Made by a program: the position numbers and the translations under genes. From the sequence record PQ471460.1: a DNA stretch of 64,000 nucleotides, one strand, 5' to 3'. The DNA is from Escherichia phage vB_EcoM_JE01. Every line of letters starts with the position of its first letter. The first letter of the stretch is position 1. Positions 1,184-48,589 of the stretch are shown here, in pieces. The notes under the pieces are model-generated. The model ran no database searches. It was not told the origin of the DNA and saw only the letters and a list, made by a program, of their open reading frames with translations.

Positions 1184-1266
1184 CATACAAGTAATATAAA
1201 TCTATACTTAGGAAAAATAGATGATTCTGGACCTCTGGAATTCATTAAAAAATTTTTCACAAAACT

Positions 1267-1296
1267 GTTTACATCCCAGTTCCTTTGTGGTACTAT
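1267..1296 (+). promoter_or_regulatory. T4-type early promoter
   Basis: GTTTAC 1267-1272, 18-bp spacer, TGgTACTAT at 1288-1296; same ~55-bp element recurs at 28235, 31878, 48514. Confidence 0.6.
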
Positions 1297-1330
1297 ACAA
1301 CTATCAACTGATGCGGATTTGGAGAATGAA

Positions 1331-1711
1331 ATGAAAATCGCTATTTTGGTTATTGCATTGGGTCTTACTGGTTGTGTAGCTCAAGGACCAGTAGTAAATC
1401 AGTCTGATGTAGGAAAAATTGTAAACTGTTCAAGCAAATTTTATAATCCTAACGTCAAGTGTTATAAAGAGGCTCCAAAACAGACAGTAGAACAAATGCA
1501 GGCGAATTTTGACGAAGCTATTCGTCCAGATGAATCTGCACAAGCATATCGTAATTCAGATGTGATTACGCGTGAAGAAAAAATTGAAAACTACTGTGCT
1601 GAACTTTGGGCAAATTGGGCTAATAATTACCAATGGCGTACTGGTAAAAATGCTCCGATGGAGTATGTAGTAAATTCTTATAATTCATGTGTAAAAAATT
1701 TGACTAAGTGA
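1331..1711 (+). CDS. Hypothetical lipoprotein (126 aa)
   Basis: ATG at 1331 with GGAG RBS; N-terminus MKIAILVIALGLTGC is a signal peptide with lipobox cysteine; larger ORF 1142..1711 starts upstream of the promoter. Confidence 0.5.
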   Translation: MKIAILVIALGLTGCVAQGPVVNQSDVGKIVNCSSKFYNPNVKCYKEAPKQTVEQMQANFDEAIRPDESAQAYRNSDVITREEKIENYCAELWANWANNYQWRTGKNAPMEYVVNSYNSCVKNLTK

Positions 1712-1718
1712 GGAAAAC

Positions 1719-1970
1719 ATGGAAACTTTAGTAGCAGGTTCAATTTTTATGGTTTTAGTTTCAGGCGTGTTGGCTATTATTATATACATGCTTCCGTGGT
1801 TCATCGCCTTGATGCGTGGGTCAAAATCGACAGTAGGAATCTTTTTCACGTCTTTACTGTTTAACTGGTCAATTATTGGTTGGTTTATTACCTTTATTTG
1901 GTCAATTGCGGGTGAAACTAAAAAATCTGTACAGCAAAATCAAGTAATTATCATCAGAGAGAAGGAATGA
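1719..1970 (+). CDS. imm: Imm superinfection-immunity membrane protein (83 aa)
   Basis: 83-aa hydrophobic protein between 43 and 42, matching T4 Imm length and position. Confidence 0.8.
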   Translation: METLVAGSIFMVLVSGVLAIIIYMLPWFIALMRGSKSTVGIFFTSLLFNWSIIGWFITFIWSIAGETKKSVQQNQVIIIREKE

Positions 1971-2116
1971 AAAGCAAAATTTTAGCAGTATTGCTTTTAA
2001 TCTTGATGATTATAATAAGTATATACTATAGCGTAACAGTTCCTTGTATGATTCCAACGCTTATTATAGGGTGGAGTTTATTACTGTTACAAGTTAAATA
2101 TGAATGCATCAATTGA
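1967..2116 (+). CDS. Small hydrophobic protein (49 aa)
   Basis: ATGA overlap with imm stop; MKSKILAVLLLILMIIISIYY... single predicted TM segment; below ORF-track size cutoff. Confidence 0.4.
   Translation: MKSKILAVLLLILMIIISIYYSVTVPCMIPTLIIGWSLLLLQVKYECIN
1989..2016 (+). promoter_or_regulatory. MotA-dependent middle promoter candidate upstream of gene 42
   Basis: MotA-box-like TGCTT at 1992-1996, 14 nt gap, TATAAT at 2011-2016. Confidence 0.4.
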
Positions 2117-2123
2117 GGTTTAA

Positions 2124-2864
2124 ATGATTAACGATTATATGACAGTTGAAGAAATCCGTCTTGATTTGGGTCTTGCATTAAAGGAAAAAGATTTCGTAAT
2201 TGATAAAACCGGTGTTAAAACTATTGAAATTATTGGTGCATCATTTGTAGCAGATGAACCTTTTATTTTTGGCGCTCTTAATGATGAATACATTCAGCGT
2301 GAACTTGAATGGTATAAGTCTCAAAGTTTGTTTGTTAAAGATATTCCAGGTGAAACACCAAAGATTTGGCAGCAGGTAGCATCTTCTAAAGGCGAAATTA
2401 ACTCGAATTATGGTTGGGCCATCTGGTCAGAAGATAACTATGCCCAGTATGATATGTGTTTAGCTGAACTTGGTCAAAATCCTGATTCTCGACGCGGTAT
2501 CATGATTTATACTCGTCCATCCATGCAGTTTGACTACAATAAAGATGGTATGTCAGATTTCATGTGTACGAATACAGTACAGTATCTGATTCGTGATAAG
2601 AAAGTCAATGCAGTAGTAAGCATGCGTTCAAATGACGTGGTCTTCGGATTCCGTAATGATTATGCATGGCAAAAATACGTACTAGATAAATTAGTATCTG
2701 ATTTGAATGCAGGTGATTCAACTCGTCAGTATAAAGCAGGTTCTATTATATGGAATGTCGGAAGTCTTCATGTGTATTCCCGTCATTTTTATTTGGTTGA
2801 CCATTGGTGGAAAACTGGCGAAACTCATATTGCGAAAAAAGATTATAACGGTGAGTGGAAATGA
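2124..2864 (+). CDS. 42: dCMP hydroxymethylase gp42 (246 aa)
   Basis: Thymidylate-synthase-like protein of exactly 246 aa between imm and uvsX. Confidence 0.9.
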   Translation: MINDYMTVEEIRLDLGLALKEKDFVIDKTGVKTIEIIGASFVADEPFIFGALNDEYIQRELEWYKSQSLFVKDIPGETPKIWQQVASSKGEINSNYGWAIWSEDNYAQYDMCLAELGQNPDSRRGIMIYTRPSMQFDYNKDGMSDFMCTNTVQYLIRDKKVNAVVSMRSNDVVFGFRNDYAWQKYVLDKLVSDLNAGDSTRQYKAGSIIWNVGSLHVYSRHFYLVDHWWKTGETHIAKKDYNGEWK

Positions 2865-3703
2865 TTCAATTCGTAATTCCAAGTTATCAACGCGTAGGGG
2901 CAGTTTCTGCCCTTAATATGTTTCCATCTGATTATGAACCTCATATTGTAGTACGTAAACACGAAGAAAAAGCTTATTATGATGCTTATGGGTCTAGAGC
3001 TAAAATTATAACTATTCCTGATGATGTTAATGGAATTGCTGGTACTCGTAAAGCAATTACTGATATGTATGCAGGCCAACGAATCTGGATGATTGATGAT
3101 GATACTACTATTCGTATGAGTTCAATGCGAAAGAAAGATGATCGTCGTTGCGTAGATAAAATTAATCAATTAACTCGTGAACAGTTCTATGAATTGATTC
3201 AATACGTTGAAGATGCCATGGATTGTGGGTATTATCACGGTCATGCTCGTCTACCTATTTTTAAAATTACTTCATCTTGGGGTAATTATCGTGAAAATTC
3301 ATATGGATTCACGAATACCTGGTATGACCTTGGAAAACTTACAACAGAACAAATTGGGTATGGAAAAATTGATTTATGCGAAGATATGTATGCATTTCTC
3401 AATTTAATTAATCAAGGTTATCCGCATTTGGCCTTGTTCAAATATCTGGTTGTATCTGGAAAAGCACAAGCTCCTGGCGGATGTAGTTCAATTCGTAGTA
3501 ATTCAAAACATAATAGAGCGCTTGAGCAAATCAATAGAGAGTTTCCAGAGCAAGCTCGTTGGAAAACTTCTAATATTGAAAAACGAAAATCATTAGGTGA
3601 AGAAGACGAGCCATTAAAGGTTCTTCGCATGTGTGTTTCGCGCAAAGAAAAATCAGAAGCATTTCATAAGTTTAATGCTATTCATCCAATAGCAGTTGAT
3701 TAA
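2861..3703 (+). CDS. Glycosyltransferase, GT-A-like with DxD motif (280 aa); probable hydroxymethylcytosine sugar transferase
   Basis: ATG overlaps gene 42 stop (ATGA); N-terminal VIPSYQR and IWMIDDDTTI (DxD) motifs; occupies the slot between 42 and uvsX where T4 has beta-gt, but is not T4 beta-gt. Confidence 0.6.
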   Translation: MIQFVIPSYQRVGAVSALNMFPSDYEPHIVVRKHEEKAYYDAYGSRAKIITIPDDVNGIAGTRKAITDMYAGQRIWMIDDDTTIRMSSMRKKDDRRCVDKINQLTREQFYELIQYVEDAMDCGYYHGHARLPIFKITSSWGNYRENSYGFTNTWYDLGKLTTEQIGYGKIDLCEDMYAFLNLINQGYPHLALFKYLVVSGKAQAPGGCSSIRSNSKHNRALEQINREFPEQARWKTSNIEKRKSLGEEDEPLKVLRMCVSRKEKSEAFHKFNAIHPIAVD

Positions 3704-3727
3704 TGCCTAAATTTATTGTGTTATAAT
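3704..3727 (+). promoter_or_regulatory. Middle-promoter-like element upstream of uvsX
   Basis: TGCCT (one mismatch to MotA box TGCTT) at 3704-3708, 13 nt gap, TATAAT 3722-3727. Confidence 0.3.
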
Positions 3728-3780
3728 TACCCTATCTTTAACCAGTGAGGAAAATATAATGATGCCTATGGAAAAAATGA

Positions 3781-4962: not shown

Positions 4963-5299
4963 AGATGATTTAGATTTAGATCTAGAAATTATCGACGAAT
5001 CCCCCTCTTCGGAGGGGGAAGAAGAAAGAAAAGAACGCCTTTTTAATGAATCTCTTAAGATAATTAAATCTGCCATGGAAAATGTTATCCAGGAGATTGT
5101 CATTAAACTAGAAGACGGTTCTACACACATTGTGTATGTGACAAAATTAGATTGGGTTGATGGAAAAGTCGTAATGGACTTTGCTGTTCTTGACCAAGAA
5201 AGAAAAGCTGAGTTAGCTCCTCATGTAGAAAAATGTATTACAATGCAACTACAAGATGCATTTAATAAAAGGTCAAAGAAAAAATTTAAATTCTTTTAA
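4955..5299 (+). CDS. 40: gp40-position protein (head assembly), 114 aa
   Basis: ATG at 4955 overlapping uvsX stop; located between uvsX and 41 as in T4; acidic N-terminus. Confidence 0.5.
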   Translation: MNKDDLDLDLEIIDESPSSEGEEERKERLFNESLKIIKSAMENVIQEIVIKLEDGSTHIVYVTKLDWVDGKVVMDFAVLDQERKAELAPHVEKCITMQLQDAFNKRSKKKFKFF

Positions 5300-5308
5300 G
5301 GAGTAAGT

Positions 5309-6977: not shown

Positions 6978-6978
6978 T

Positions 6979-7221
6979 ATGCATATCGTTTTATTTAAAC
7001 CTACTCCGTATAATGTCAGGAAAAATACTCAATTCAAGGCACTTATTGCGGATACGTGGGAATTGATGTTAGATATTCCAGCAGAAGAAAGTCCTCCATT
7101 TGGTCGAGTGGAATTTATTAAGTTTGCTGTGCGCCCTACGAAGCGACAGATTCGCCAATGCAAAAGATACTTTCGTAAAATCGTCAAGTTAGAGAAACAG
7201 TTATTGATGCTAGTAAAATAG
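6979..7221 (+). CDS. Hypothetical protein (80 aa; 61.4-position)
   Basis: ATG 6979 with GAGGG RBS; ORF-track frame 6937..7221. Confidence 0.4.
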   Translation: MHIVLFKPTPYNVRKNTQFKALIADTWELMLDIPAEESPPFGRVEFIKFAVRPTKRQIRQCKRYFRKIVKLEKQLLMLVK

Positions 7222-7223
7222 TA

Positions 7224-7253
7224 GTTTACAAGCTGATAGAGTTGTGTTATAGT
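7224..7253 (+). promoter_or_regulatory. T4-type early promoter (IR-flanked -10)
   Basis: GTTTAC 7224-7229, TATAGT 7248-7253; 10-bp inverted repeat AGCTGATAGA/TCTATCAGCT at 7231-7240 and 7257-7266. Confidence 0.6.
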
Positions 7254-7284
7254 AATTCTATCAGCTAATCGCGGAGAAAAGAAA

Positions 7285-7539
7285 ATGATGCTAGTTAATA
7301 GAGAATATCAGTTTAAATCAGAAGAAGATTTGGAAAAATTCGCAAGTGGTTGTGAACTGAATAGACGCACAGCTAAAGTCATAGGATTAAAACCCTTTAC
7401 AGTTCTAGATTGTGAAGTTTCTAAATTCCGCAGAGGGTGTTCTATTAGCGGTCATGCTCTGGTTGATGGAAACACATTTTTCTTTGTTTTTAGCGTCAGA
7501 GAACTTTTATTGATTAACGAACTTGAGGAAATAAAATAG
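7285..7539 (+). CDS. Hypothetical protein (84 aa)
   Basis: ORF downstream of early promoter. Confidence 0.4.
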   Translation: MMLVNREYQFKSEEDLEKFASGCELNRRTAKVIGLKPFTVLDCEVSKFRRGCSISGHALVDGNTFFFVFSVRELLLINELEEIK

Positions 7540-7569
7540 TTTACTTTTGTTAGAAATTGAGATACTATA
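7539..7569 (+). promoter_or_regulatory. T4-type early promoter
   Basis: GTTTAC 7539-7544, 19-bp spacer, TACTAT 7564-7569. Confidence 0.5.
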
Positions 7570-18561: not shown

Positions 18562-18591
18562 GTTTACTTCCTCGGTTAGTTGTGGTATTAT
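18562..18591 (+). promoter_or_regulatory. T4-type early promoter
   Basis: GTTTAC 18562-18567, 18-bp spacer, TGTGGTATTAT (TATTAT 18586-18591). Confidence 0.55.
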
Positions 18592-20229: not shown

Positions 20230-20252
20230 AGTTTAAATTTTTTCATAAAACT

Positions 20253-20299
20253 ATATACATCAGTAGTTGATTATGGTATTATATCAATATCAACTACTG
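20253..20299 (+). promoter_or_regulatory. Promoter-like element inside an 11-bp perfect inverted repeat
   Basis: TGgTATTAT (TATTAT 20277-20282) flanked by CAGTAGTTGAT (20261-20271) and ATCAACTACTG (20289-20299); -35 degenerate (ATATAC). Confidence 0.4.
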
Positions 20300-20400
20300 A
20301 TACAGAAAACAACTTGGAGAATAAAATGGAAAATTTGCCAAAGGTGCTGCTACTCTTCTGAAACGCATCGCTCCACTGTTCAATTAATGAGGAAATTGTA

Positions 20401-27727: not shown

Positions 27728-28217
27728 CTTGACTAGTGAAATGAAGGTCAAAATTGCTGATACAGCAAGATACTCTTTAAAACAAAATCCTAATCAGGAT
27801 AAAGCAGAAGTTATTGAAAGATGTCGCATCGCTGTGTACGCAGAATTTTTTGTAGCAGATTGGCTAAGAGGGTATGTTAACAAAGGCCAAGAGGATGTTA
27901 ATGACCCGTATACATATGCGTGGGATGTATTGGCACACCCAAGATACTGTGGACTTCGTGTAGAAGTCAAAACACATCAAACTGACTCACGTTGGATTTC
28001 GGTAACAACCGGATGCAGCGGAGAGTATCCATACGGTTCTGGAATAAATCTAGGGCCCATTCTGAATCATCAGGTCGCTGACTGTATAATTATATTCAAC
28101 ACTAAAGAAATTCATCCAGGTGTCATCCAGTACACTCCGAAGTTCATCGGTGATAGAGAAGACCTTCGTAAGGTTGTAAGAAAAAGCAACTACAACGGAT
28201 GGTATCTTTCTATTTAA
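27660..28217 (+). CDS. denB: Endonuclease IV-position protein DenB candidate (185 aa)
   Basis: 185-aa ORF between rIIB and ndd, same length and position as T4 denB. Confidence 0.5.
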   Translation: MQKTNPGLQRLFQIPTFTLSNSDLTSEMKVKIADTARYSLKQNPNQDKAEVIERCRIAVYAEFFVADWLRGYVNKGQEDVNDPYTYAWDVLAHPRYCGLRVEVKTHQTDSRWISVTTGCSGEYPYGSGINLGPILNHQVADCIIIFNTKEIHPGVIQYTPKFIGDREDLRKVVRKSNYNGWYLSI

Positions 28218-28234
28218 AAAATTTTCACAAAACA

Positions 28235-28264
28235 GTTTACATACCACAAGGACCGTGGTACTAT
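28235..28264 (+). promoter_or_regulatory. T4-type early promoter
   Basis: GTTTAC 28235-28240, 18-bp spacer, TGgTACTAT 28256-28264. Confidence 0.6.
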
Positions 28265-28291
28265 ACAACTATCAGCTACGGAGGAGTAAAA

Positions 28292-28555
28292 ATGAAATTT
28301 AAATTTTATTACGCTAAACATAAAATAACTGATGAGTTCGTGTCAGTTGAATATTCTAGCGACGATGAAGGTATGATTTATACTCACTTGGGACTATCGC
28401 ATTGGGAGTCTGATACGCCTTATTTTTCAACTCCCGAAGAAATTACACGCTTAGTTAATGGTCATATGAATGACCACTGGAATGTAATTCTTTCAGATAG
28501 TCTTAAAGCGGCTATTAATAGTAATGAAATGAAAATCGCTGAGATTGAACTATGA
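28292..28555 (+). CDS. Hypothetical protein (87 aa)
   Basis: ATG 28292 with GGAGG RBS just downstream of promoter. Confidence 0.45.
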   Translation: MKFKFYYAKHKITDEFVSVEYSSDDEGMIYTHLGLSHWESDTPYFSTPEEITRLVNGHMNDHWNVILSDSLKAAINSNEMKIAEIEL

Positions 28556-28750
28556 GTTCATTATGGTGGTGTTTTGTTTGGTTAATTAGTATTCCATTAA
28601 TTTGTTTAACATTTACTTTTGTGATGAGGTTATTATGAAAATTTTTAATTCTGTACTTATTGCTTGTGCGTGGTGGGTTGCACAAGTTTCGGCAGTAGTA
28701 ATTGGTATTCACATTTATTACGAATATTTTTAAAAAAGTTGTTTACAAGA

Positions 28751-28780
28751 CTGTTCCTCTGTGGTATTATTACTCTATCA
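28751..28780 (+). promoter_or_regulatory. T4-type early promoter
   Basis: GTTTAC 28751-28756, 18-bp spacer, TGTGGTATTAT (28775-28780). Confidence 0.6.
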
Positions 28781-28798
28781 ACTACGGAGGAACAGAAA

Positions 28799-28912
28799 AT
28801 GAAAAAGATTGTTAAAGCTATATGGAATGTAGTTATAATACTAGTAGTTTTGAGTATATTCCCAATCGTTTTAATGATTGATGTATTAAACGCTTACTTT
28901 GGATTTATGTGA
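28799..28912 (+). CDS. Hydrophobic micro-protein (37 aa)
   Basis: ATG 28799 with GGAGG RBS; MKKIVKAIWNVVIILVVLSIFPIVLMIDV... Confidence 0.4.
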   Translation: MKKIVKAIWNVVIILVVLSIFPIVLMIDVLNAYFGFM

Positions 28913-28919
28913 GGAAAAT

Positions 28920-29117
28920 ATGAAGCGTAAACGCAGTGCTTTTACATTTATTGAATGGTTTTTCGATAATATTTTTCCGGCTTTATTCATTTTCATGTTG
29001 ATTTTCGCCTTAGGTTCTGTTGTAGTTGGAATCTATTTGATGGCGGTTGTCGGAATGGATATTCACCAAAATGGTTTGAAATCTGTGGTTGAAACAATTT
29101 GGAATGGTGTAAAATAA
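28920..29117 (+). CDS. Small membrane protein (65 aa)
   Basis: ATG 28920 with GAGGAAAA RBS; two hydrophobic segments. Confidence 0.4.
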   Translation: MKRKRSAFTFIEWFFDNIFPALFIFMLIFALGSVVVGIYLMAVVGMDIHQNGLKSVVETIWNGVK

Positions 29118-29224
29118 TGAATTTACTAAGCATTTGGTTTTATATTCTTGTATTTTACATTGGCGCAAATATCCCATATTGGATGGGATGGTCAACAGCT
29201 GCATTTGGATTTTATACTCCTTGA
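29117..29224 (+). CDS. Hydrophobic micro-protein (35 aa)
   Basis: ATGA overlap with previous ORF; MNLLSIWFYILVFYIGANIPYWMGW... Confidence 0.3.
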   Translation: MNLLSIWFYILVFYIGANIPYWMGWSTAAFGFYTP

Positions 29225-29232
29225 GGTGAATT

Positions 29233-29448
29233 ATGAAAATTTTTAAAGATGTAAAAGTTGGTGAAATTTTCTGTTTAGATAATGGTGATCAGTTAATTCG
29301 TATTTCACCTCTTAAGAGCACTAGCGAGAAAATGACAGTTAACGCTACTTTAGCAAATAACAGTAATGAACGTTTCTGTATTGAAAATGATACTGAAACT
29401 TATACTGTAGAAGAGTTCTGGGAATTGAGCGTCGCCTGCGACGATTAA
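29233..29448 (+). CDS. Hypothetical protein (71 aa)
   Basis: ORF with GAGG RBS. Confidence 0.4.
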   Translation: MKIFKDVKVGEIFCLDNGDQLIRISPLKSTSEKMTVNATLANNSNERFCIENDTETYTVEEFWELSVACDD

Positions 29449-29454
29449 TTTATC

Positions 29455-29476
29455 GGCCGTATGAATTCATACGGCC
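29455..29476 (+). other. Perfect 22-bp palindrome GGCCGTATGAATTCATACGGCC upstream of ndd
   Basis: Exact dyad symmetry read directly from sequence; no U-tract follows. Confidence 0.7.
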
Positions 29477-29508
29477 TTGGAGTAGAAAATAATTTAGAGG
29501 AAATTAAC

Positions 29509-29964
29509 ATGAAATATATGACTGTTACTGATTTGAATAATGCAGGCGCAACTGTTATTGGTACAATCAAGGGCGGTGAATGGGTTTTTGGAACTCCGCA
29601 TAAAGACATTTTGTCTAACCCTGGATTTTACTTTTTAGTGAGTAAATTTGGTGGTCCATTTGATAGTCCGTGTGTATCTGCACGATTTTATGTAGGTAAT
29701 CAGCGTTCTAAGCAAGGATTCAGTGCAGTTCTAAGTCATATTCGTCAGCGTCGGTCTCAGCTTGCGCGTACTATTGCAAATAACAATGTTCCATACACAG
29801 TATTTTATCTACCTTCTTCTAAGATGAAACCTCTGACGACTGGATTTGGAAAAGGTCAGTTAGCTTTAGCGTTTACTCGTAATCATCATTCTGAGTATCA
29901 AACGCTTGAAGAAATGAACCGTATGTTGGCTGATAACTTTAAATTTGTTTTGCAGGCATATTAA
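29509..29964 (+). CDS. ndd: Ndd nucleoid-disruption protein (151 aa)
   Basis: ATG 29509 ([13 protein letters not shown]...) with GAGGAAA RBS; matches T4 Ndd as I recall it. Confidence 0.75.
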
Positions 29965-30023
29965 TGAGTAATTTCCATAACGAACATGTGATGCAGTTCT
30001 ATCGTAACAATCTTAAAACTAAA

Positions 30024-30039
30024 GGCGTCTTCGGACGCC
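30024..30039 (+). other. Intercistronic RNA hairpin with UUCG tetraloop
   Basis: GGCGTC-TTCG-GACGCC, no U-tract. Confidence 0.5.
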
Positions 30040-30051
30040 AGTGAGGAAAAT

Positions 30052-30207
30052 ATGAATATTGCAAAATTATTAGGAGTTATTTCATTTATTTGTTGGATAG
30101 TAGCATGTGTTTTAACTATCTGTATAGATGCTAGCAGTGTGTTTTCGCAAGCTTTAGCTCAGGGTATGTGTGCATATTTAACATTTGCGTTGTTATCTAA
30201 TGATTAA
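30052..30207 (+). CDS. ac: Ac acriflavine-sensitivity membrane protein (51 aa)
   Basis: 51-aa hydrophobic ORF between ndd and 52, same size and position as T4 ac; GAGGAAAA RBS. Confidence 0.6.
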   Translation: MNIAKLLGVISFICWIVACVLTICIDASSVFSQALAQGMCAYLTFALLSND

Positions 30208-30340
30208 GAAAATCTTGGGCTACTCGGTAGCCCTTGCTGCTTTATTGGTAGCACTATATTATGGAGTAATGTTCGGATTAATTCAAGTCGTGCTTTTCAT
30301 TTCTGATGTTATTATGGCACTACATTCACTAGTATGGTAA
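30200..30340 (+). CDS. Hydrophobic micro-protein (46 aa)
   Basis: ATG overlaps ac 3' end; MIKKILGYSVALAALLVALYYGVMFGLIQ... Confidence 0.35.
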   Translation: MIKKILGYSVALAALLVALYYGVMFGLIQVVLFISDVIMALHSLVW

Positions 30341-30344
30341 ATTT

Positions 30345-31673
30345 ATGCAACTGAATAATCGCGATTTAAAAAGTATCATTGATAATGAAGCATTGGCTTA
30401 TGCTATGTACACGGTTGAAAATCGTGCTATTCCAAATATGATTGATGGATTTAAGCCAGTCCAACGATTTGTTATCGCTCGAGCTCTTGATTTGGCACGA
30501 GGAAATAAAGATAAGTTTCACAAACTTGCTTCTATTGCAGGTGGTGTAGCTGACCTTGGATATCATCATGGCGAAAACTCTGCACAAGATGCGGGGGCTT
30601 TGATGGCTAACACTTGGAATAATAACTTTCCTTTGTTAGACGGTCAAGGAAACTTTGGTTCTCGTACTGTTCAAAAAGCAGCGGCAAGTCGTTATATTTT
30701 TGCTCGTGTAAGTAAAAATTTCTATAACGTATATAAAGATACTGAATATGCTCCGGTACATCAAGATAAAGAACACATTCCGCCTGCTTTCTATTTGCCT
30801 ATTATTCCTACTGTTCTTCTTAATGGTGTTTCCGGTATTGCAACTGGTTATGCAACTTACATTCTTCCTCATAGTGTTTCTTCTGTTAAGAAAGCTGTAT
30901 TACAAGCTCTTCAAGGAAAGAAAGTAACTAAACCGAAGGTAGAATTCCCAGAATTTCGCGGTGAAGTCGTTGAGATTGACGGGCAATATGAAATTCGTGG
31001 AACATATAAGTTTACTTCACGAACTCAAATGAATATCACTGAGATTCCGTATAAGTATGATCGTGAAACTTATGTGAGTAAAATCTTAGACCCGCTTGAA
31101 GATAAGGGCTTCATTACATGGGATGATGCTTGCGGTGAGCATGGTTTTGGCTTTAAAGTTAAATTCCGCAAAGAATATTCTTTGAGCGATAACGAAGAAG
31201 AACGCCATGCAAAAATCATGAAAGACTTCGGGTTGATTGAGCGTCGTTCCCAGAATATTACAGTCATTAATGAGAAAGGAAAGCTGCAAGTTTACGATAA
31301 CGTAGTTGATTTAATCAAAGACTTCGTTGAAGTTCGTAAAACTTATGTCCAAAAACGAATTGATAACAAAATTAAAGAAACTGAATCAGCATTTCGTTTA
31401 GCCTTTGCCAAGGCACATTTCATTAAGAAAGTAATTTCAGGTGAAATCGTTGTACAGGGTAAAACTCGCAAAGAACTGACCGAAGAACTTTCTAAAATTG
31501 ATATGTATTCTTCTTATGTCGATAAACTAGTCGGAATGAATATTTTTCATATGACTTCTGACGAAGCAAAGAAACTTGCTGAAGAAGCTAAAGCTAAGAA
31601 AGAAGAAAACGAATATTGGAAAACTACTGATGTAGTTACAGAATACACCAAAGATTTAGAGGAAATCAAATGA
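30345..31673 (+). CDS. 52: Topoisomerase II medium (GyrA-like) subunit gp52, 442 aa
   Basis: GyrA-like N-terminal domain with active-site region AASRYIFAR; 442 aa. Confidence 0.9.
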   Translation: MQLNNRDLKSIIDNEALAYAMYTVENRAIPNMIDGFKPVQRFVIARALDLARGNKDKFHKLASIAGGVADLGYHHGENSAQDAGALMANTWNNNFPLLDGQGNFGSRTVQKAAASRYIFARVSKNFYNVYKDTEYAPVHQDKEHIPPAFYLPIIPTVLLNGVSGIATGYATYILPHSVSSVKKAVLQALQGKKVTKPKVEFPEFRGEVVEIDGQYEIRGTYKFTSRTQMNITEIPYKYDRETYVSKILDPLEDKGFITWDDACGEHGFGFKVKFRKEYSLSDNEEERHAKIMKDFGLIERRSQNITVINEKGKLQVYDNVVDLIKDFVEVRKTYVQKRIDNKIKETESAFRLAFAKAHFIKKVISGEIVVQGKTRKELTEELSKIDMYSSYVDKLVGMNIFHMTSDEAKKLAEEAKAKKEENEYWKTTDVVTEYTKDLEEIK

Positions 31674-31819
31674 GTCCATTCATAGGTATTACAAGCGCGG
31701 CATTAGTATCTGGCGGCATTTTACTAGCGGGGGTAGGTGTTGTTCCAGCCGTAGCAGGAGGTCTTCTTGCGTTCGGCATTCAACGTGTTATCATGACAGT
31801 TATCACAGTCATGCAGTAA
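31670..31819 (+). CDS. Hydrophobic micro-protein (49 aa)
   Basis: ATGA overlap with gene 52 stop; Gly/Ala/Val-rich TM peptide. Confidence 0.35.
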   Translation: MSPFIGITSAALVSGGILLAGVGVVPAVAGGLLAFGIQRVIMTVITVMQ

Positions 31820-31825
31820 ATTTTA

Positions 31826-31851
31826 GGGAGAGCCGAGGCTCTCCCTTTTTT
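31826..31851 (+). terminator. Intrinsic terminator
   Basis: GGGAGAGC-CGAG-GCTCTCCC hairpin followed by TTTTTT. Confidence 0.75.
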
Positions 31852-31877
31852 ATTTTAATTTTTTTTTTCACAAAACG

Positions 31878-31907
31878 GTTTACAACCAAAGCATACTATG
31901 GTACTAT
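31878..31907 (+). promoter_or_regulatory. T4-type early promoter (motA)
   Basis: GTTTAC 31878-31883, 18-bp spacer, TGgTACTAT (31902-31907); near-identical to element at 48514. Confidence 0.65.
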
Positions 31908-31948
31908 ACAACTATCAACTACTGATACAGAATTACGGAGATTAGAAA

Positions 31949-32584
31949 ATGTCTAAAGTAACTTACATCATCAAAGCTTCTAACGATGTTCTGAATGAAA
32001 AAACTGCTGCGATTTTAATTACCATTGCTAAGAAAGATTTCATTACAGCTGCAGAAGTTCGTGAGGTGCATCCAGATTTAGGTAATGCAGTAGTTAATAG
32101 TAATATTGGGGTATTGATTAAAAAAGGCCTGGTGGAGAAATCTGGTGATGGATTAATCATTACTGGTGAAGCTCAGGATATTATTTCAAATGCGGCAACT
32201 TTATACGCACAGGAAAACGCTCCTGAACTGCTGAAAAAACGAGCAACTCGTAAAGCTCGCGAGATTACTTCTGATATGGAAGAAGATAAAGACTTCATGT
32301 TAAAACTTTTAGATGAAAATGGATTTGTTCTTAAAAAGGTTGAAACTTATCGTAGTAACTATCTCGCTATTTTAGAAAAACGCACTCACGGAATTCGTAA
32401 TTTTGAAATTAACAACAATGGAAATATGCGAATTTTTGGATACAAAATGATGGAACATCATATTCAGAAATTTACTGATATCGGAATGTCATGTAAAATC
32501 GCTAAAAACGGTAATGTGTATCTTGACATTAAACGCTCGGCTGAAAACATTGAAGCTGTAATCACCGTAGCATCTGAACTGTGA
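31949..32584 (+). CDS. motA: MotA middle-transcription activator (211 aa)
   Basis: 211 aa; matches T4 MotA as I recall it (MSKVTYIIKASNDVLNEKTAAILITIAKKDFITAAEVREVHPDLGNAVVNSNIGVLIKKGLVEKSGDGLIITGEAQDIISNAATLYAQENAPELLKKRATRKAREITSDMEEDKDFMLKLLDENGFVLKKVETYRSNYLAILEKRTHGIRNFEINNNGNMRIFGYKMMEHHIQKFTDIGMSCKIAKNGNVYLDIKRSAENIEAVITVASEL). Confidence 0.85.
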   Translation: MSKVTYIIKASNDVLNEKTAAILITIAKKDFITAAEVREVHPDLGNAVVNSNIGVLIKKGLVEKSGDGLIITGEAQDIISNAATLYAQENAPELLKKRATRKAREITSDMEEDKDFMLKLLDENGFVLKKVETYRSNYLAILEKRTHGIRNFEINNNGNMRIFGYKMMEHHIQKFTDIGMSCKIAKNGNVYLDIKRSAENIEAVITVASEL

Positions 32585-35363: not shown

Positions 35364-36143
35364 TTATACTCTTGGACCATATATTGCTCCAACGTTTTGC
35401 CATGTCGGTGTAGACCCTATGACGGCATAACCAGCAGCACCACCGTTATATTCTGTACCGTTCCCATGAATATTACATCTACCTCCTGCTGAGCCAACTT
35501 CACCGCCATTCCCGCCTGTATATACCCAAAGAGACCCCTCACCGACAGATCCTGCACCCGGAGCGGAAATGGTGCCAGCGGTTGCACCAGCACCCATATG
35601 AGAGGAAGACCCGCCAGCACCGAATGGGCGACCACCACCACCACCAAATGATAGTCTACCGTAGTTACCGCCGCCGCCACCGCCACCGCCGCCTGCAATA
35701 GCTCCACCATTATTAATTCTTAGTCTCCCACCAATATCGTTTTGAATACAATGACCTCCAGCTGAGCCAGGACTATTGCTACCGCCATTACCGCCACGTC
35801 CATACATCGTTACGCCGTGTATATTCAACTGAACATATTCATTCGGTGTATCTCCGTACATGAAGAATAAAGGAACATCTTTAGAATATGATACTAAATC
35901 TCCAGTGATATTAAACACTATAGGTGTACTACCTGCCTCAAAACATCTATCTCGGAACCATTGACCATTGAAGTTATGGTCTGCTCCAAGCGTGTGAATA
36001 ATTTCTCTTGAGCGACCTGCAAATTGACTCATCCAGCAAGGAACACCCAATCTTAATTGACCAGCTGCTTGACTCATCCAGCGCTGACCCGTTTCATTTA
36101 CGGCTGAACTTCCAATCCAGCCAGGAACTCCAACTACTGCCAT
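35364..36143 (-). CDS. 38: gp38 tail-fibre adhesin, T2 type (259 aa) with glycine-rich motifs
   Basis: Poly-Gly tracts ([29 protein letters not shown]) characteristic of T2-like gp38 adhesins rather than the shorter T4 gp38 chaperone. Confidence 0.8.
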
Positions 36144-41297: not shown

Positions 41298-44200
41298 TTA
41301 TTCAACCCATTCAAATTTAACCGTTTTATTCACTGGGTCAGGAACAATGCGAACATTACCAATTCGTAAGAAATCACGAATAGTAAGATTACCCATTATA
41401 GCATTATCAGATGGTAAAGCACCAATATCAGATGGCTGAGGAGGGTTACCCCCATCAAATACCTGAACAAAACTTGACCAAGAGTTTTTGGTTTTCTGCC
41501 ATGTGCGCGTCCAGCGAGTGGTACGTGCTTCTGGCGTCGTTGGATAAGTAATCCAATCTTGGTAAAGCGAATCAAGTGTATTACCAAACTGAGTCAATGT
41601 ACCAGGAGATTTAACTTCTTCGCCACGTTCTAAGTATGGAAGTCCAGTCACTTCATTAGTTTTTTCAACCATTTTAAAATAACCCGGGAACTGGTTATAA
41701 GTGGCTGAATCGTTAATATCGATTGACCAGAATCCGACAGTATCAGATGTTGGTGCGCGGGTATATAAATCAGATGTTTTAGTGCCCTGAGAACGAATTC
41801 TCGAGTTAACAGTCAAACCGCCTGAATTTATAGTAGCACCTTTGGCAATAATTAAGCTTTCGCCAATCGTTACTTGGCCAGATGCATTATTAATAGCTAA
41901 AGGACGTAATCCATTAAATCCACCAGTCTGATCACCTGATGCAGTAAACATAAAATTCGTTACTGATCCATCATTGCGAACAATGAAACCATAATTTCCG
42001 TTAATAGCACGGAAAGCATTTGCACTTCGAGAAATAATTTCACCAGTTGCAGTGACTGAATTACCAAATGTTGCTACACCATTTGCATTCAATGTTCCTG
42101 AAGCATTAACATTTATAGGTGTTACTGTACCATTGATATTAAATGTTATATTTCCAGCTTTATTGCGCTGAGAATAAAAGTGATTAGACGTTTCATCACC
42201 AACTTCAAATACAGTCGAACGTGTTGTATCTGATTCCCCACTAAATTGATTACCCCACACTCTAATAGTCACCGTCTGTGCTTGGTTAGTTCCAGTTTGA
42301 GGTCCTTTCTCAAAAATCAGATGAGTTTCTGTTCCAGTATTAGAAATAGTTAGTACACTATTTGCCGAAACTGAACCACCAAACGTAGCAGTACTAGATG
42401 ATACAAGAGGGGCACTCAGATTCGTTTGTTGGGTTAAGGTTAGTGAACCATTAACCGTCTGCGCAATGTCCCTACGAATGAACTGAGATGAATCTAGACC
42501 ATCCAATAAATTACTATCTACAGCTTTTGCTTTTAATGGCAAATAATTTGCTAATACACGGTTTAATTCATATGGTGATACTGCATAACTATTTTTCTCA
42601 TACAGTTCTAAATCTTGGGTAGAACCGACTGTATCATTACCAACGAATGTAATTGAACCAGATGAAGTTTTAACAAAACCTCTTATCGCAGTAGTAGCTG
42701 CCCAGGTAGGTTCACTCTGCACAATCCATTTTAAATTTTTTGGAGATACAGCAGTATTTGCTGACGTTCCAGTCACAGTTTCAGACTGAGTTGCAACTTT
42801 AATAACACCTTCTTGTGCTTCAGTAGATTTAGTACCTAAAAGCTTTTTAGGAGTTATTAAAACATTATCTAATGTTCCTGTAGCAGCTTCGACTTGTGTA
42901 GCTACACGAAGTGTACCACGCTGTGTCTCATTTGCTTCAAGAATATTAAGGGTATAATGGTCCCAGAGAGTTCCTGATTCAACTAATCCAGATAGAGCAA
43001 CAACAGAAGTACGATCAGTACTATTAAATCTGGTTTTAATTTTTAATGGTGTAGAGATACGAGTATCGTCGACGCCTGCGTCGAATTCAACCTGTGTAGC
43101 AATTTCAGCTATACCACTTAAACTTTCAGTTGCTCTACGGTCATTTAAAGTTTTAGGAGTGACTGCACGAGTATAATCAGTTCCTGTATTAACTTCGCTT
43201 TGCGTAGCAATTTCAATTAAACCAATTCTTCCATCAGTTGATGTCTTTTTATGTAACGTTTCTGGCGTTACAACCGCATTTGCCCATCCTTCCTGACTTT
43301 GTCCAGCAATTACTTCACTTTCAACTGCTAAAATTACTGCACCTTGTTGGGTTGGAGTAGCTTTATACTGATCCAAAGCTTTAGGTGAAACAACTAAATT
43401 ATCAGTGTTTTTATTATAAACATTCGTACCATTTAATTCACGGCTAGAAGCTGGAGTAGCACCTGCAGTAGATACAAAGGTTACAATACCAGATAATGAT
43501 TCAGAACCTTGACGAGCTTGAAGCTTTTTAGGAGTGATGATTGTAGTATCATCGGTTCCTGCATTAGTTTCTTGCTGCGTAGCAATTTCAGCAACACCTC
43601 TGCGAGTTTCAGTAGCTGTTCTTTCATTCAGCTTTTTAGGAGTGATGATAATATCATCAGCAAAAGAGAATGTAGTATCCTGGTTAACTTGAGCAGTTGT
43701 TGCTATTCTTGCGATACCTCTACGAGTTTCTGTAGCAGTACGGTTAGCTAACGTTTCTGGAGTAATTGCCAATTCTTTTTGTGGAGAATTTTCTAAATCA
43801 GCATTAGCTTGAGCTTGTGTAGCTAAAGCAATTACGCCTAATCTTGCTCTAGTAGAATCATTTAAAGAATCTACTCTTTCTACGGTTGGAACGTTTTGCT
43901 GTACAACCCAATATTTTCCATCAGAATCTTCTATATAAGCAAGCTCCAAAACTGGAACATAATTAGTTTCACCGTTAAAAACTAATTCTTGAACTGTTAC
44001 CCATTCAGCTTCAGGCGGATATTCTGAGCGTTTTGGGAATTGCAACAATTGAACTGAAGAAGCAATTTTATCTTCACCTGCAGCTTTGATTTTAACTGTT
44101 TGTCCTTTTCTCATGTAATTCATGGAAATTTTGACAGTATCACCAACAGAAATATCAGTCGGAAGCTGAAGTTCAATTGTTTGGGTTGTTCCATTATTCG

Positions 44201-45167: not shown

Positions 45168-45201
45168 TCTCCCGGGCTCCTATTGTGTTTTCAATAATAA
45201 G

Positions 45202-45209
45202 TATTTATA
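45202..45209 (-). promoter_or_regulatory. Late promoter TATAAATA upstream of gene 34
   Basis: Exact TATAAATA on minus strand 35 nt upstream of gene 34 ATG. Confidence 0.6.
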
Positions 45210-45212
45210 CTT

Positions 45213-45242
45213 GTTTACTTTAAGATTTGGATAGTATATAAT
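45213..45242 (+). promoter_or_regulatory. T4-type early promoter (rnh), divergent from the gene 34 late promoter
   Basis: GTTTAC 45213-45218, 18-bp spacer, TATAAT 45237-45242. Confidence 0.55.
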
Positions 45243-45271
45243 AGAAATCTCACTAATTGAACGAGGTTCAT

Positions 45272-46189: not shown

Positions 46190-46197
46190 GGTGAATA

Positions 46198-46467
46198 ATG
46201 GCTAAAAAAGAAATGGTTGAATTTGATGAAGCTATCCATGGCGAAGACTTGGCTAAATTTATTAAAGAAGCATCTGATCATAAACTGAAAATTTCCGGTT
46301 ATAATGAATTGATTAAAGATATTCGAATTCGTGCTAAAGATGAACTTGGCGTTGATGGAAAGATGTTTAATCGTTTATTAGCTTTGTATCATAAAGATAA
46401 CCGTGATGTGTTTGAAGCTGAAACTGAAGAGGTAGTTGAACTTTATGACACAGTTTTCTCTAAATGA
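46198..46467 (+). CDS. dsbA: DsbA dsDNA-binding late transcription protein (89 aa)
   Basis: 89 aa between rnh and 33. Confidence 0.75.
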   Translation: MAKKEMVEFDEAIHGEDLAKFIKEASDHKLKISGYNELIKDIRIRAKDELGVDGKMFNRLLALYHKDNRDVFEAETEEVVELYDTVFSK

Positions 46468-46783
46468 TATTCGTCCGGTCGATGAGACCGGTCTTTCAGA
46501 AAAAGAACTTTCAATTAAGAAAGAAAAGGATGAAATTGCAAAACTGCTTGATCGTCAAGAAAATGGATTTATTATTGAAAAAATGGTAGAAGAGTTTGGA
46601 ATGAGTTATCTTGAAGCTACAACAGCATTCTTGGAAGAAAATTCTATTCCTGAAACCCAATTTGCTAAATTTATTCCTTCGGGTATAATTGAAAAAATTC
46701 AGTCAGAAGCTATCGACGAAAATCTTTTACGTCCTTCTGTTGTTCGTTGTGAAAAAACTAATACATTAGATTTTCTACTATGA
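46445..46783 (+). CDS. 33: Late transcription co-activator gp33 (112 aa)
   Basis: ATG 46445 overlapping dsbA 3' end in another frame; 112 aa; upstream of 59. Confidence 0.75.
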   Translation: MTQFSLNDIRPVDETGLSEKELSIKKEKDEIAKLLDRQENGFIIEKMVEEFGMSYLEATTAFLEENSIPETQFAKFIPSGIIEKIQSEAIDENLLRPSVVRCEKTNTLDFLL

Positions 46784-47433
46784 TTAAACTCCGCATGCCT
46801 GCTGGTGGTGAAAGATACATTGATGGTAAATCAGTTTATAAATTATACTTAATGATAAAACAACATATGAATGGAAAGTATGATGTAATTAAGTATAATT
46901 GGTGCATGCGGGTGTCTGATGCCGCTTATCAAAAGCGAAGGGATAAGTATTTTTTCCAGAAGTTATCAGAAAAATATAAATTAAAGGAACTTGCTTTAAT
47001 CTTTATAAGCAATCTGGTTGCTAACCAGGATGCTTGGATTGGTGACATCTCTGACGCTGATGCACTTGTGTTTTATCGTGAATATATCGGACGCTTAAAG
47101 CAAATTAAATTTAAGTTTGAAGAAGATATTCGCAACATTTATTATTTTAGTAAAAAAGTTGAAGTTTCTGCTTTTAAAGAAATTTTTGAATATAATCCAA
47201 AAGTTCAATCAAGTTATATTTTTAAACTACTTCAATCGAATATAATTTCGTTTGAGACGTTTATCTTGCTTGATTCGTTTTTAAATATAATTGATAAACA
47301 TGATGAACAGACTGATAATTTAGTCTGGAATAATTATTCTATAAAGTTAAAGGCTTATAGAAAAATTTTAAATATTGATTCGCAGAAAGCCAAAAGTGTT
47401 TTTATTGAAACTGTGAAATCATGCAAGTATTAA
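46780..47433 (+). CDS. 59: Helicase loader gp59 (217 aa)
   Basis: 217 aa immediately upstream of gene 32. Confidence 0.85.
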   Translation: MIKLRMPAGGERYIDGKSVYKLYLMIKQHMNGKYDVIKYNWCMRVSDAAYQKRRDKYFFQKLSEKYKLKELALIFISNLVANQDAWIGDISDADALVFYREYIGRLKQIKFKFEEDIRNIYYFSKKVEVSAFKEIFEYNPKVQSSYIFKLLQSNIISFETFILLDSFLNIIDKHDEQTDNLVWNNYSIKLKAYRKILNIDSQKAKSVFIETVKSCKY

Positions 47434-47458
47434 TTGCTTATTATAAATAGATTATAAT
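47432..47458 (+). promoter_or_regulatory. Stacked middle and late promoters upstream of gene 32
   Basis: MotA-box-like aatTGCTTa (47432-47440), late TATAAATA 47442-47449, TATAAT 47453-47458. Confidence 0.5.
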
Positions 47459-47466
47459 TATCTCAC

Positions 47467-47498
47467 TGACCAGCTATGAGGTCATACATCGTCATAGC
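47467..47498 (+). promoter_or_regulatory. Gene 32 mRNA leader pseudoknot (autoregulatory translational operator)
   Basis: H-type pseudoknot: S1 TGACC (47467-47471) pairs GGTCA (47480-47484); S2 GCTATG (47473-47478) pairs CATAGC (47493-47498); followed by A/U-rich unstructured leader to the ATG. Confidence 0.7.
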
Positions 47499-47532
47499 AC
47501 CAACTGTTAATTAAATTAAAAAGGAAATAAAA

Positions 47533-48441
47533 ATGTTTAAACGTAAATCTACTGCTGAACTCGCTGCACAAATGGCTAAACTGGCTGGAAATAAAGGTGG
47601 TTTTTCTTCTGAAGATAAAGGCGAGTGGAAACTGAAACTCGATAATGCGGGTAACGGTCAAGCAGTAATTCGTTTTCTTCCGTCTAAAAATGATGAACAA
47701 GCACCATTCGCAATTCTTGTAAATCACGGTTTCAAGAAAAACGGTAAATGGTATATCGAAAATTGCTCATCTACCCACGGTGATTACGATTCTTGCCCAG
47801 TATGTCAGTACATCAGTAAAAATGATTTGTATAACACTGACAATAAAGAGTACGGTCTTGTTAAACGTAAAACTTCTTACTGGGCTAACATTCTTGTAGT
47901 AAAAGACCCAGCTGCTCCAGAAAATGAAGGTAAAGTATTTAAATATCGTTTCGGTAAGAAAATCTGGGATAAAATCAACGCAATGATTGCAGTTGATGTT
48001 GAAATGGGTGAAACCCCAGTTGATGTAACTTGTCCGTGGGAAGGTGCTAACTTTGTACTGAAAGTTAAACAAGTTTCTGGTTTTAGTAACTACGATGAAT
48101 CTAAATTCCTGAATCAATCTGCGATTCCAAACATTGATGATGAATCTTTCCAGAAAGAACTGTTCGAACAAATGGTTGACCTTTCTGAAATGACTTCTAA
48201 AGATAAATTCAAATCGTTTGAAGAACTGAGCACTAAGTTCAGTCAAGTTATGGGAACTGCTGCTATGGGTGGTGCCGCAGCAACTGCCGCTAAGAAAGCT
48301 GATAAAGTTGCTGATGATTTGGATGCATTCAATGTTGATGACTTCAAAACAAAAACTGAAGATGATTTTATGAGCTCAAGCTCTGGCAGTTCATCTAGTG
48401 CTGATGACACGGACCTGGATGACCTTTTGAATGACCTTTAA
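47533..48441 (+). CDS. 32: Single-stranded DNA-binding protein gp32 (302 aa)
   Basis: Zn-binding H...C...C...C core and acidic C-terminus; near-identical to T4 gp32 as I recall it. Confidence 0.95.
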
Positions 48442-48463
48442 TAGATTATATTACTAATTAATT

Positions 48464-48488
48464 GGGGACCCTAGAGGTCCCCTTTTTT
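48464..48488 (+). terminator. Intrinsic terminator after gene 32
   Basis: GGGGACC-CTAGA-GGTCCCC hairpin followed by TTTTTT. Confidence 0.75.
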
Positions 48489-48513
48489 ATTTCAAAATTT
48501 TTTTCACAAAACT

Positions 48514-48543
48514 GTTTACAACCAAAGCATACTGTGGTACTAT
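48514..48543 (+). promoter_or_regulatory. T4-type early promoter
   Basis: GTTTAC 48514-48519, 18-bp spacer, TGTGGTACTAT (48538-48543). Confidence 0.65.
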
Positions 48544-48589
48544 ACAACTATCGGCAATACTGCTGATGATGATTAAAGAGGAAAATAAC

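Follow-up and report, generated by a model that had tools for sequence, protein, structure and literature searches.

What makes four promoter-like segments, scattered over tens of kilobases of one phage genome, resemble each other over about 52 nucleotides, and have they exchanged sequence? The question arises from a 64,000-nucleotide stretch of Escherichia phage vB_EcoM_JE01 (PQ471460.1), which was analysed as a whole and is referred to here as the window. It comes from a Tequatrovirus (T4-like phage), runs in the direction of the early genes and is 95–97% identical to many coliphages. A preliminary description of its letters had listed four directly oriented, near-identical copies of an early-promoter cassette and suggested that recombination between them was possible.

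Extent of the repeat family

We searched the window with the full core, TTTTCACAAAAC-N-GTTTACA-N14-TGGTACTATACAACTATC, written as a regular expression. It matches exactly four places, all on the + strand: 1254–1305 (copy 1), 28222–28273 (copy 2), 31865–31916 (copy 3) and 48501–48552 (copy 4). The exact 17-mer GGTACTATACAACTATC likewise occurs four times, on the + strand only, at 1289, 28257, 31900 and 48536. In shuffled sequence 0.12 matches to this 17-mer were expected at up to three mismatches and four were never reached, and a repeat search of the window returned the same four copies as one family (D2). The four direct copies first described are thus real. We rejected a transposon or MITE-like origin of the repeats, as terminal inverted repeats and target duplications were not apparent.

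Copies 3 and 4, which had been called almost identical, differ at 2 of 52 core positions and show 88% identity over 75 nt. Pairwise comparison of all four copies from -60 to +9 (69 nt) gave identities of 70–86% with a mean of 74%, as opposed to a mean of 50% and a maximum of 68% between the four copies and the 15 other early promoters of the window. Invariant columns number 41 out of 69, and only 20 of these 41 are also consensus in the other 15 promoters. The likeness therefore reaches beyond the -35 and -10 hexamers; a similarity confined to the hexamers, the contrary case named in the preliminary description, is not what we observe. The four copies share two invariant blocks of about 18–21 nt each, compared with 6–7 nt in other promoters. 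Among the 19 early promoters in the window, this subfamily is also marked by the -10 TACTAT, the discriminator ACAACT and the upstream CACAAAAC.

Some details had to be corrected. The ranges first given did locate the four segments, but that of copy 4 ended 7 nt short, since the block reaches 48552. The shared downstream block ACAACTATC is common to all four copies, whereas only copies 1 and 3 extend it by AACT. With a predicted start 7 nt past the -10, the shared block would enter the transcribed leader, as had been proposed, but by about 3 nt in all four copies and no further. The family is also wider than four. A diverged fifth member lies at 20238–20307 on the + strand, with the -35 altered to ATATAC and a -10 TATTAT, and its leader, ATCAACTACTGATACAGAA, matches that of motA exactly. 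Close relatives are found at 28726–28795 (+ strand), an early promoter with -10 TATTAT and discriminator TACTCTATC, and at about 49212–49265.

Promoter anatomy and T4 orthology

The four copies are built alike, with an A/T-rich UP element, a -35 GTTTACA, a 17-nt spacer, TGG (TGn) and a -10 TACTAT. The 25 nt upstream of the -35 are 80–84% A+T in all four and contain AAAAATTTTT and AAAA tracts. Each copy points in the same direction as its downstream early gene, and GGAG or GAGG stands before the starts at 1331, 28292, 31949 and 48590.

Copy 1 (1243–1305, + strand) lies just past gene 43 and upstream of imm.1 and was recognized by its sequence and its T4 orthologue. It consists of a UP-like A/T tract (1243–1267), the -35 TTTACA (1268–1273) and the -10 TACTAT (1291–1296), with a predicted +1 at 1303; the first gene it would serve is the imm.1 orthologue of 126 aa (1331–1711, + strand). 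Copy 2 (28211–28273, + strand; -35 28236–28241, -10 28259–28264, predicted +1 28271) follows denB and is succeeded by an 87-aa ORF (28292–28555, + strand) that belongs to a variable module. Copy 3 (31853–31916, + strand; -35 31879–31884, -10 31902–31907, predicted +1 31914) is the motA early promoter and precedes motA (31949–32584, + strand), which encodes the 211-aa activator of middle transcription. Copy 4 (48490–48552, + strand; -35 48515–48520, -10 48538–48543, predicted +1 48550) is the frd.3 early promoter, followed by a diverged allele of the frd.3 orthologue (75 aa, 48590–48817, + strand).

The gene context around the four copies matches that of T4, which carries the same cassettes at the same four sites and in nearly the same sequence. 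The T4 orthologues of the copies are the promoters ahead of imm.1, ndd.6, motA and frd.3. The orthologue of copy 1 is located between T4 genes 43 and imm.1, and the record X75802 labels that of copy 2 a promoter and marks its -35 and -10. Promoter features are absent from the RefSeq and GenBank T4 records.

T4 early promoters as a class have been known for decades to carry an extended consensus. They are of the UP/-35/TGn/-10 type with extra consensus regions (PMC2988021) and have been compared across T4-like phages (Nolan et al. 2006, PMC1524935). Like the four copies, they precede early genes and combine GTTTAC at -36 to -31 with an A-rich UP-like region, a spacer of 17 nt, TGn and a TAnnnT -10, and their consensus goes beyond the sigma-70 elements (Hinton 2010, PMC2988021; Nolan et al. 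2006, PMC1524935). We see no essential difference between them and the four copies, which form one subfamily known here from sequence. The designation as early-promoter cassettes was therefore apt, given this geometry and the genes that the copies precede (the orthologues of imm.1, motA and frd.3 and, beyond denB, a small ORF).

From this anatomy and the T4 orthology, host sigma-70 RNA polymerase would be expected to use the promoters immediately after infection; in T4 infection motA mRNA is present at 1 min (PMC9697503). The alpha C-terminal domains would contact the A/T-rich UP tract AAAAATTTTTCACAAAAC, sigma region 4 GTTTACA, region 3 TGn and region 2 TACTAT. Transcription would begin about 7 nt downstream of the -10, at the A of ATC, with imm.1/imm, the small ORFs beyond denB, motA and frd.3/frd as the genes served.

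Spacer exchange between promoter sites

Two causes could together account for likeness beyond the hexamers: functional constraint on the regions contacted by polymerase, and repeated ectopic homologous recombination between the copies. To compare the sites across relatives we used 50-kb stretches of seven phage genomes together with T4-like IMG/VR contigs, of which a scan with the 17-mer returned about a dozen. The 11 genomes compared at the frd.3 site have four unrelated classes of the 17-nt spacer among them, and each class is also present at another promoter site. F13076 shares the motA type with the window, KNP5 shares the T4 type with T4 itself, the T2 type is found in T2, ES26, BCH953P4 and three IMG/VR contigs, and LF73P3 has the copy-2 type. 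The frd.3 spacer of the window (copy 4) equals exactly that of the T4 motA promoter, and the motA site of LF73P3 holds the T4 frd.3-type spacer. The imm.1 site alternates between two classes, both of which are present at other sites too; the spacer class of the promoter at 28726–28795 (agactgttc...) also occupies the imm.1 site in T4, T2 and other phages.

These replacements are found in nearly identical surroundings. Between KNP5 and LF73P3 the flanks of the frd.3 site are 99.6% (upstream) and 99.0% (downstream) identical, and 9 of 17 spacer positions differ. The motA sites of ES26 and LF73P3 also differ at 9 of 17 spacer positions, between flanks of 98.3% and 99.3% identity. Of the promoters compared outside the subfamily, most show a single spacer class across relatives, with 0–5 substitutions.

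Could selection alone have produced this pattern? Each site would then converge on, or be held by purifying selection at, an optimum for the host or Alt-modified RNA polymerase, with no recombination. The invariant blocks do coincide with known polymerase contacts (UP, -35, TGn, -10 and discriminator; PMC2988021), and the 20 invariant positions that recur as consensus in the other 15 early promoters fit such constraint. The frd.3 site, however, is served by at least four unrelated spacers, so that the spacer does not count as constrained. Moreover, non-orthologous sites can share all 17 spacer positions, whereas orthologous sites differ at 9–11 of 17 within flanks of 97–99.6% identity. Selection as the sole cause is therefore very improbable.

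We give equally little credence to a single ancient duplication or cassette insertion followed by independent evolution of the copies, with shared ancestry as the only link. The copies are old, because the four sites are occupied in nearly all Tequatrovirus genomes examined. Independent evolution predicts that spacers track site orthology, but the classes are reshuffled among sites in close relatives, and each of the four alleles of the frd.3 site is common in public records. We counted these alleles by megablast of 77 nt against public records. Each has exact or near matches in tens to hundreds of phage records. The count is workable for three alleles; for the copy-2 type, hits to the copy-2 promoter itself probably raise it. 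For the T4-type and T2-type alleles, the records at ≥99% identity number 63 to 109, with several independent T2 records among them.

In a third explanation, general homologous recombination on short homology gives way to a dedicated, sequence-specific system; an endonuclease or a DNA-binding protein that recognises CACAAAAC..GTTTACA or ACAACTATC would be an example. T-even phages encode many homing endonucleases, which are also present in T4 annotations, and the swapping falls mainly within the subfamily, whose members have the two long invariant blocks. A specific factor was raised as a possibility by the authors of the PeSL work (PMC2839356). Our analysis identified no protein or cleavage site of this sort, and the length of homology explains the pattern equally well (blocks of 18–21 nt versus 6–7 nt elsewhere). 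Some promoters outside the subfamily also lie at mosaic boundaries, for example that at 18586 in T2 and F13076. We thus regard a dedicated system as highly unlikely. Finally, the swaps are almost certainly not assembly errors: short-read assemblers can be misled by repeats, but a repeat of about 52 nt is shorter than a typical read, and the same alleles recur exactly in the many independent records counted above.

Taken together, the comparisons make it very likely that the four repeats are one subfamily of T4-type early promoters whose spacers were swapped by ectopic homologous recombination between copies. In the pathway that we infer, the two invariant blocks (about 21 and 18 nt) would act as crossover points, and the 17-nt spacer, sometimes with the leader or downstream ORF, would therefore be copied from site to site. 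The idea of recombination between distant sites thus holds for short spacers, which were exchanged between the imm.1, denB-downstream, motA and frd.3 sites, but in the form of short patches and local indels, not long deletions. As for the deletion variants that the preliminary description had proposed to look for, the seven related genomes compared show none that removes the DNA between any two of the copies. This absence is expected, because essential genes, as we take them to be from T4 genetics, lie between the four copies. The data support short-patch ectopic exchange, combined with local gain and loss of ORFs, as the way in which distant copies probably traded short pieces of sequence.

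On balance, though with less assurance, we favour a broader reading in which the two-block subfamily is a dispersed recombination network. Short-patch conversion would move 17-nt spacers, and sometimes leaders, between sites as much as tens of kilobases apart, natural populations would carry a small segregating set of interchangeable alleles, and promoters that lack the blocks would change by point mutation only. If true, such a network would offer a simple natural readout of minimal-homology recombination in T4, and spacer shuffling would be a possible way of tuning promoter strength.

The pattern resembles interlocus (ectopic) gene conversion in its short tracts bounded by conserved sequence and in the closer similarity between sites than between orthologues. 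It differs in that the repeats are only about 52 nt long and regulatory, not genes, and in that a few discrete spacer alleles are shuffled instead of homogenised. In the literature we searched, nothing specific was found on gene conversion or ectopic exchange among T-even promoters, and we regard promoter-internal spacer swapping, which we did not find described there, as a modest addition.

Terminators and ORF turnover beside the cassettes

Two of the copies directly follow intrinsic terminators. The one upstream of copy 3 (31825–31856, + strand) has a 9-bp stem and a T run that merges into the A/T tract of the promoter (dG -19.4 kcal/mol, z -4.3). The one upstream of copy 4 (48464–48489, + strand), downstream of gene 32, is the stem-loop GGGGACCCTAGAGGTCCCC with a T run. 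Because of this PeSL arrangement, copies 3 and 4 would each open a new transcription unit. We did not find a convincing terminator upstream of copy 1 (z -1.1) or copy 2 (a hairpin that lacks a T run), and therefore only two of the four copies fit the PeSL architecture.

In that architecture, as in copies 3 and 4, a terminator stem-loop is followed by an early promoter and then by a Shine-Dalgarno sequence and start codon, and it is likewise tied to insertion, deletion and replacement of ORFs between close relatives (Arbiol et al. 2010, PMC2839356; Comeau et al. 2014, PMC4122927). The PST/T4 PeSL consensus is TTTACW-N17-TAYWAT (PMC4122927), and the ndd.4/.5 exchange example of the PeSL work concerns the rIIB-52 region, the locus of copy 2 (PMC4122927). 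That terminator/promoter cassettes serve as recombination linkers has thus been proposed before. Unlike the PeSL cassettes, copies 1 and 2 have no clear stem-loop terminator, and it is here mainly the spacer of the promoter itself that is replaced between distant sites, which is not in the PeSL papers (PMC2839356, PMC4122927).

The 52-nt cassettes are real breakpoints of T-even mosaicism, as seen from borrowed spacers in near-identical genomes. The recombination idea is directly checkable in public genomes, and it holds; annotators and phage engineers should regard cassette sites as prone to exchange. Copy 2 lies in the variable rIIB-52 region, and copies 1, 3 and 4 abut conserved genes (43, 52/motA and 32). 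Small variable ORFs come after copies 1, 3 and 4 despite these conserved neighbours. T2 has extra ORFs after copy 1. The 87-aa ORF after copy 2 is missing in T4 and diverged in ES26, and in LF73P3 an extra ORF lies ahead of it. ES26 and LF73P3 carry a 75-aa ORF and a second promoter inserted before motA, between 23-nt direct repeats CTATCAAATAAATGAACTGAAAC.

Identity profiles break at the cassettes, and the divergence of frd.3 starts at copy 4. The frd.3 allele of the window is about 71–83% identical in nucleotides to those of T4 and T2 and 96–100% identical to that of phage F13076. At this site the swapped spacer is linked to the diverged frd.3 allele, and a module may have been replaced here, with a single crossover inside the cassette, instead of a patch being converted on its own.

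Four closely related early promoters

Three large pieces of the window matched hundreds of Escherichia, Shigella and Yersinia Tequatrovirus genomes at ~95–97% identity (megablast, GenBank phages), and gene order relative to T4 identified the + strand as the early-gene strand. Starting at the end of gene 43, the order is imm, 42, uvsX, 41, 61, dda, 39 and rIIA/B, then denB, ndd, 52 and motA, followed by tail-fibre genes in the opposite orientation and by rnh, 59, 32 and frd. Short direct repeats in the tail-fibre block (42841–43659 and 36006–36082; AGCTTTTTAGGAGTGATGAT three times and one 32-nt pair with 45-nt spacing) probably correspond to repeated peptide motifs of the opposite-strand fibre proteins. 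A pattern scan (TTTAC-like −35, 17-nt spacer, TAnnnT, plus TGn, a preceding G or A/T-rich upstream sequence) detected 19 T4-type early promoters on the + strand.

Four of these promoters (copies 1–4) form a subfamily. The sequence GGTACTATACAACTATC occurs exactly four times in the window, always on the + strand, compared with 0.12 matches expected by chance when three mismatches were permitted (shuffles). The full core, TTTTCACAAAAC-N-GTTTACA-N14-TGGTACTATACAACTATC, was found at 1254–1305, 28222–28273, 31865–31916 and 48501–48552 and nowhere else in the window, and a repeat search placed the same copies in one family (D2). Together with direct reading of the segments, these searches confirmed the four-copy repeat of the preliminary description, whose coordinates were off by no more than a few bases apart from the end of copy 4, which lies at 48552. 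Two of the 52 core positions distinguish copy 3 from copy 4. Between −60 and +9 the copies are 70–86% identical to one another (mean 74%) versus a mean of 50% (maximum 68%) to the 15 other early promoters, which show 47% identity to each other. Of the 69 columns, 41 do not vary among the copies, and only 20 of those 41 are consensus in the other 15. The likeness therefore extends well past the −35 and −10 hexamers. The downstream sequence ACAACTATCAACT, thought to be shared, is present only in copies 1 and 3, whereas ACAACTATC is common to all four. Part of the downstream block (..CTATC AACTAc) is family-wide and is present too at promoters 7248, 28765 and 49251.

In each copy, GTTTACA follows an A/T-rich tract and is separated from TACTAT by a 17-nt spacer with TGG at its end. 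The arrangement is the one published for T4 early promoters, made up of UP, −35, TGn and −10 elements with additional consensus regions (PMC2988021; PMC1524935). The copies also conform to TTTACW-N17-TAYWAT, the PST/T4 consensus of the promoter-early stem-loop (PeSL) cassette, in which a terminator stem-loop lies just upstream of an early promoter (PMC4122927). Downstream lie an imm.1 orthologue (copy 1; ATG at 1331), an 87-aa ORF after denB (copy 2; 28292), motA (copy 3; 31949) and a frd.3 orthologue (copy 4; 48590). T4 has near-identical cassettes at the same four places, and GenBank X75802 annotates −35 and −10 signals for the T4 orthologue of copy 2 and for the neighbouring T4 promoter equivalent to 28765. 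Thus, calling the copies early-promoter cassettes was essentially correct. During T4 infection motA mRNA is detectable at 1 min (PMC9697503).

Strong terminator hairpins with T runs precede copy 3 (31825–31856, dG −19.4 kcal/mol, z −4.3) and copy 4 (the stem-loop after gene 32, 48464–48489), and the hairpin search found no such structure directly upstream of copies 1 and 2. The full PeSL layout is therefore present in two of the four copies. Terminator-like hairpins are also enriched across 28000–32100 (9 versus 1.8 expected from shuffles), several lying within or antisense to gene 52; the copy-3 hairpin (31825–31846) is one of the nine. The copies are of a known kind: all four are T4 early promoters with orthologues among the known promoters of T4, and two have the PeSL form. 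Judging from promoter geometry, transcription would start at the A of ATC, 7 nt past the −10 element, in each copy, and we infer that all four are active in this phage.

Spacer alleles at the four sites

To compare spacers, we used ~50-kb stretches spanning all four sites from KNP5, LF73P3, ES26, BCH953P4, F13076 and T2, two T4 stretches, and 30 IMG/VR loci containing the 17-mer GGTACTATACAACTATC. Each promoter was placed at a window site according to BLAST matches of its flanking sequence. At the frd.3 site, the window and F13076 carry accaaagcatactgtgg, which is the motA type and exactly the T4 motA spacer; T4 and KNP5 carry agcataaagctttatgg; T2, ES26, BCH953P4 and three IMG/VR contigs carry tccttgtccttccatgg and close variants; and LF73P3 carries the copy-2 type, taccacaaggactgtgg. 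The motA site has accaaagcatactgtgg in 10 of 11 genomes and agcataaagctttatgg in LF73P3. At the imm.1 site, tccctgttcttccatgg-like spacers (window, LF73P3, ES26, F13076, two IMG/VR contigs) alternate with agactgttcttccatgg, the class also of the 28765 site (T4, T2, BCH953P4, three IMG/VR contigs). The copy-2 site has taccacaaggac(c/t)gtgg in all 13 genomes.

Individual swaps can cover very little sequence. At the frd.3 site, 9 of 17 spacer positions separate KNP5 from LF73P3, within flanks of 99.6% (237 nt upstream) and 99.0% (300 nt downstream) identity, and ES26 and LF73P3 likewise differ at 9 of 17 at the motA site, within flanks of 98.3% and 99.3%. Assembly error is an unlikely source of these patterns because the alleles recur in many independent records. 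With allele-specific 77-nt queries, the motA-type frd.3 allele matched 83 public records (RB14 among them), the T4 type 116 and the T2 type 287, each at ≥95% identity; the copy-2 type matched 72 at ≥99%, though hits to copy 2 itself probably raise this count. With that reservation, every one of these alleles is common in public genomes. Shared ancestry alone cannot explain why spacer classes are reshuffled between sites, nor can convergence account for identity at 17 of 17 positions in a region where four or more unrelated sequences are functional at a single site.

The reshuffling is most simply read as homologous exchange between ectopic copies, with crossing over inside the two invariant blocks flanking the spacer, a recombination pathway that we infer. 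The earlier suggestion that distant copies could recombine is supported by the reshuffled classes within near-identical flanks and was essentially correct. Nine ordinary promoters (6760, 11533, 13635, 14970, 18586, 19682, 23764, 34367 and 45237) have one spacer lineage per site among relatives, with 0–5 substitutions. Exchange is concentrated among the subfamily members, whose invariant blocks are long. The searchable literature yielded no description of such a concentration, or of promoters trading their own spacers in short patches between sites far apart. In our view, spacer swapping modestly extends the PeSL idea and does not amount to a new category.

ORF turnover and mosaic boundaries

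A check for deletion variants bounded by copies 1–4 had also been proposed; none spanning two copies was seen among the seven related genomes. T4 genetics places essential genes between the members of every pair of copies, with the possible exception of copies 2 and 3. Smaller events adjoin the cassettes. In ES26 and LF73P3, an insert between the copy-3 promoter and motA (stretch positions 31378–31747 and 31640–32005, respectively) contains a 75-aa ORF (MKFKIENEIVKAKNALTANKLVVDG...) and then a second early promoter, and is limited by a 23-nt direct repeat, CTATCAAATAAATGAACTGAAAC; two IMG/VR contigs with the same altered leader appear to carry it too. After copy 2, LF73P3 has one additional ORF; in T2, copy 1 is followed by extra ORFs. 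T4 lacks the 87-aa ORF: its copy-2 promoter is followed by an imm.1-like leader and then by the ORF's final eight codons. In the window, the 18-nt exact repeat AATGAAATGAAAATCGCT spans the imm.1 leader and start codon (1325–1342) and occurs again at the 3′ end of the 87-aa ORF (28523–28540). Because the T4 junction lies exactly at this point, the arrangement suggests deletion by recombination at the 18-nt homology. These events, together with the frd.3 allele change at copy 4 (below), agree with the PeSL modular-shuffling model (PMC2839356; PMC4122927), whose worked example, ndd.4/.5 (Comeau et al.; PMC4122927), lies, like copy 2, in the rIIB-52 region.

Copy 4 is also a mosaic boundary, because sequence upstream of the frd.3 promoter is 97–100% identical to all compared phages, whereas the frd.3 allele that starts at the copy in the window (48553–48940) is diverged, with 71–83% nucleotide identity to T4, T2, KNP5 and others but 96–100% to Salmonella phage F13076, in which it likewise starts at copy 4. 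A diverged fifth cassette lies at 20238–20307 (TTTTTTCATAAAACTATATACA...TATGGTATTAT...ATCAACTACTGATACAGAA). It has ATATAC in place of GTTTAC, a leader identical to that of motA, and only an 11-codon ORF (20326–20361) after it. The altered −35 is kept in T4, KNP5, LF73P3, ES26 and BCH953P4; the corresponding sequence differs in T2 and F13076.

Promoter 18586, outside the subfamily, likewise marks a mosaic boundary, since T2 and F13076 are 96–99% identical to the window upstream and fall to ~40–70% only past it. The window also has an extra promoter-plus-ORF module at 7214–7560 relative to T4, KNP5, LF73P3 and BCH953P4, which have a single promoter matching the 7248 upstream flank and the 7563 downstream flank. 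In the repeat search, promoter 7248 was 70% identical to its neighbour 6760 over 64 nt.
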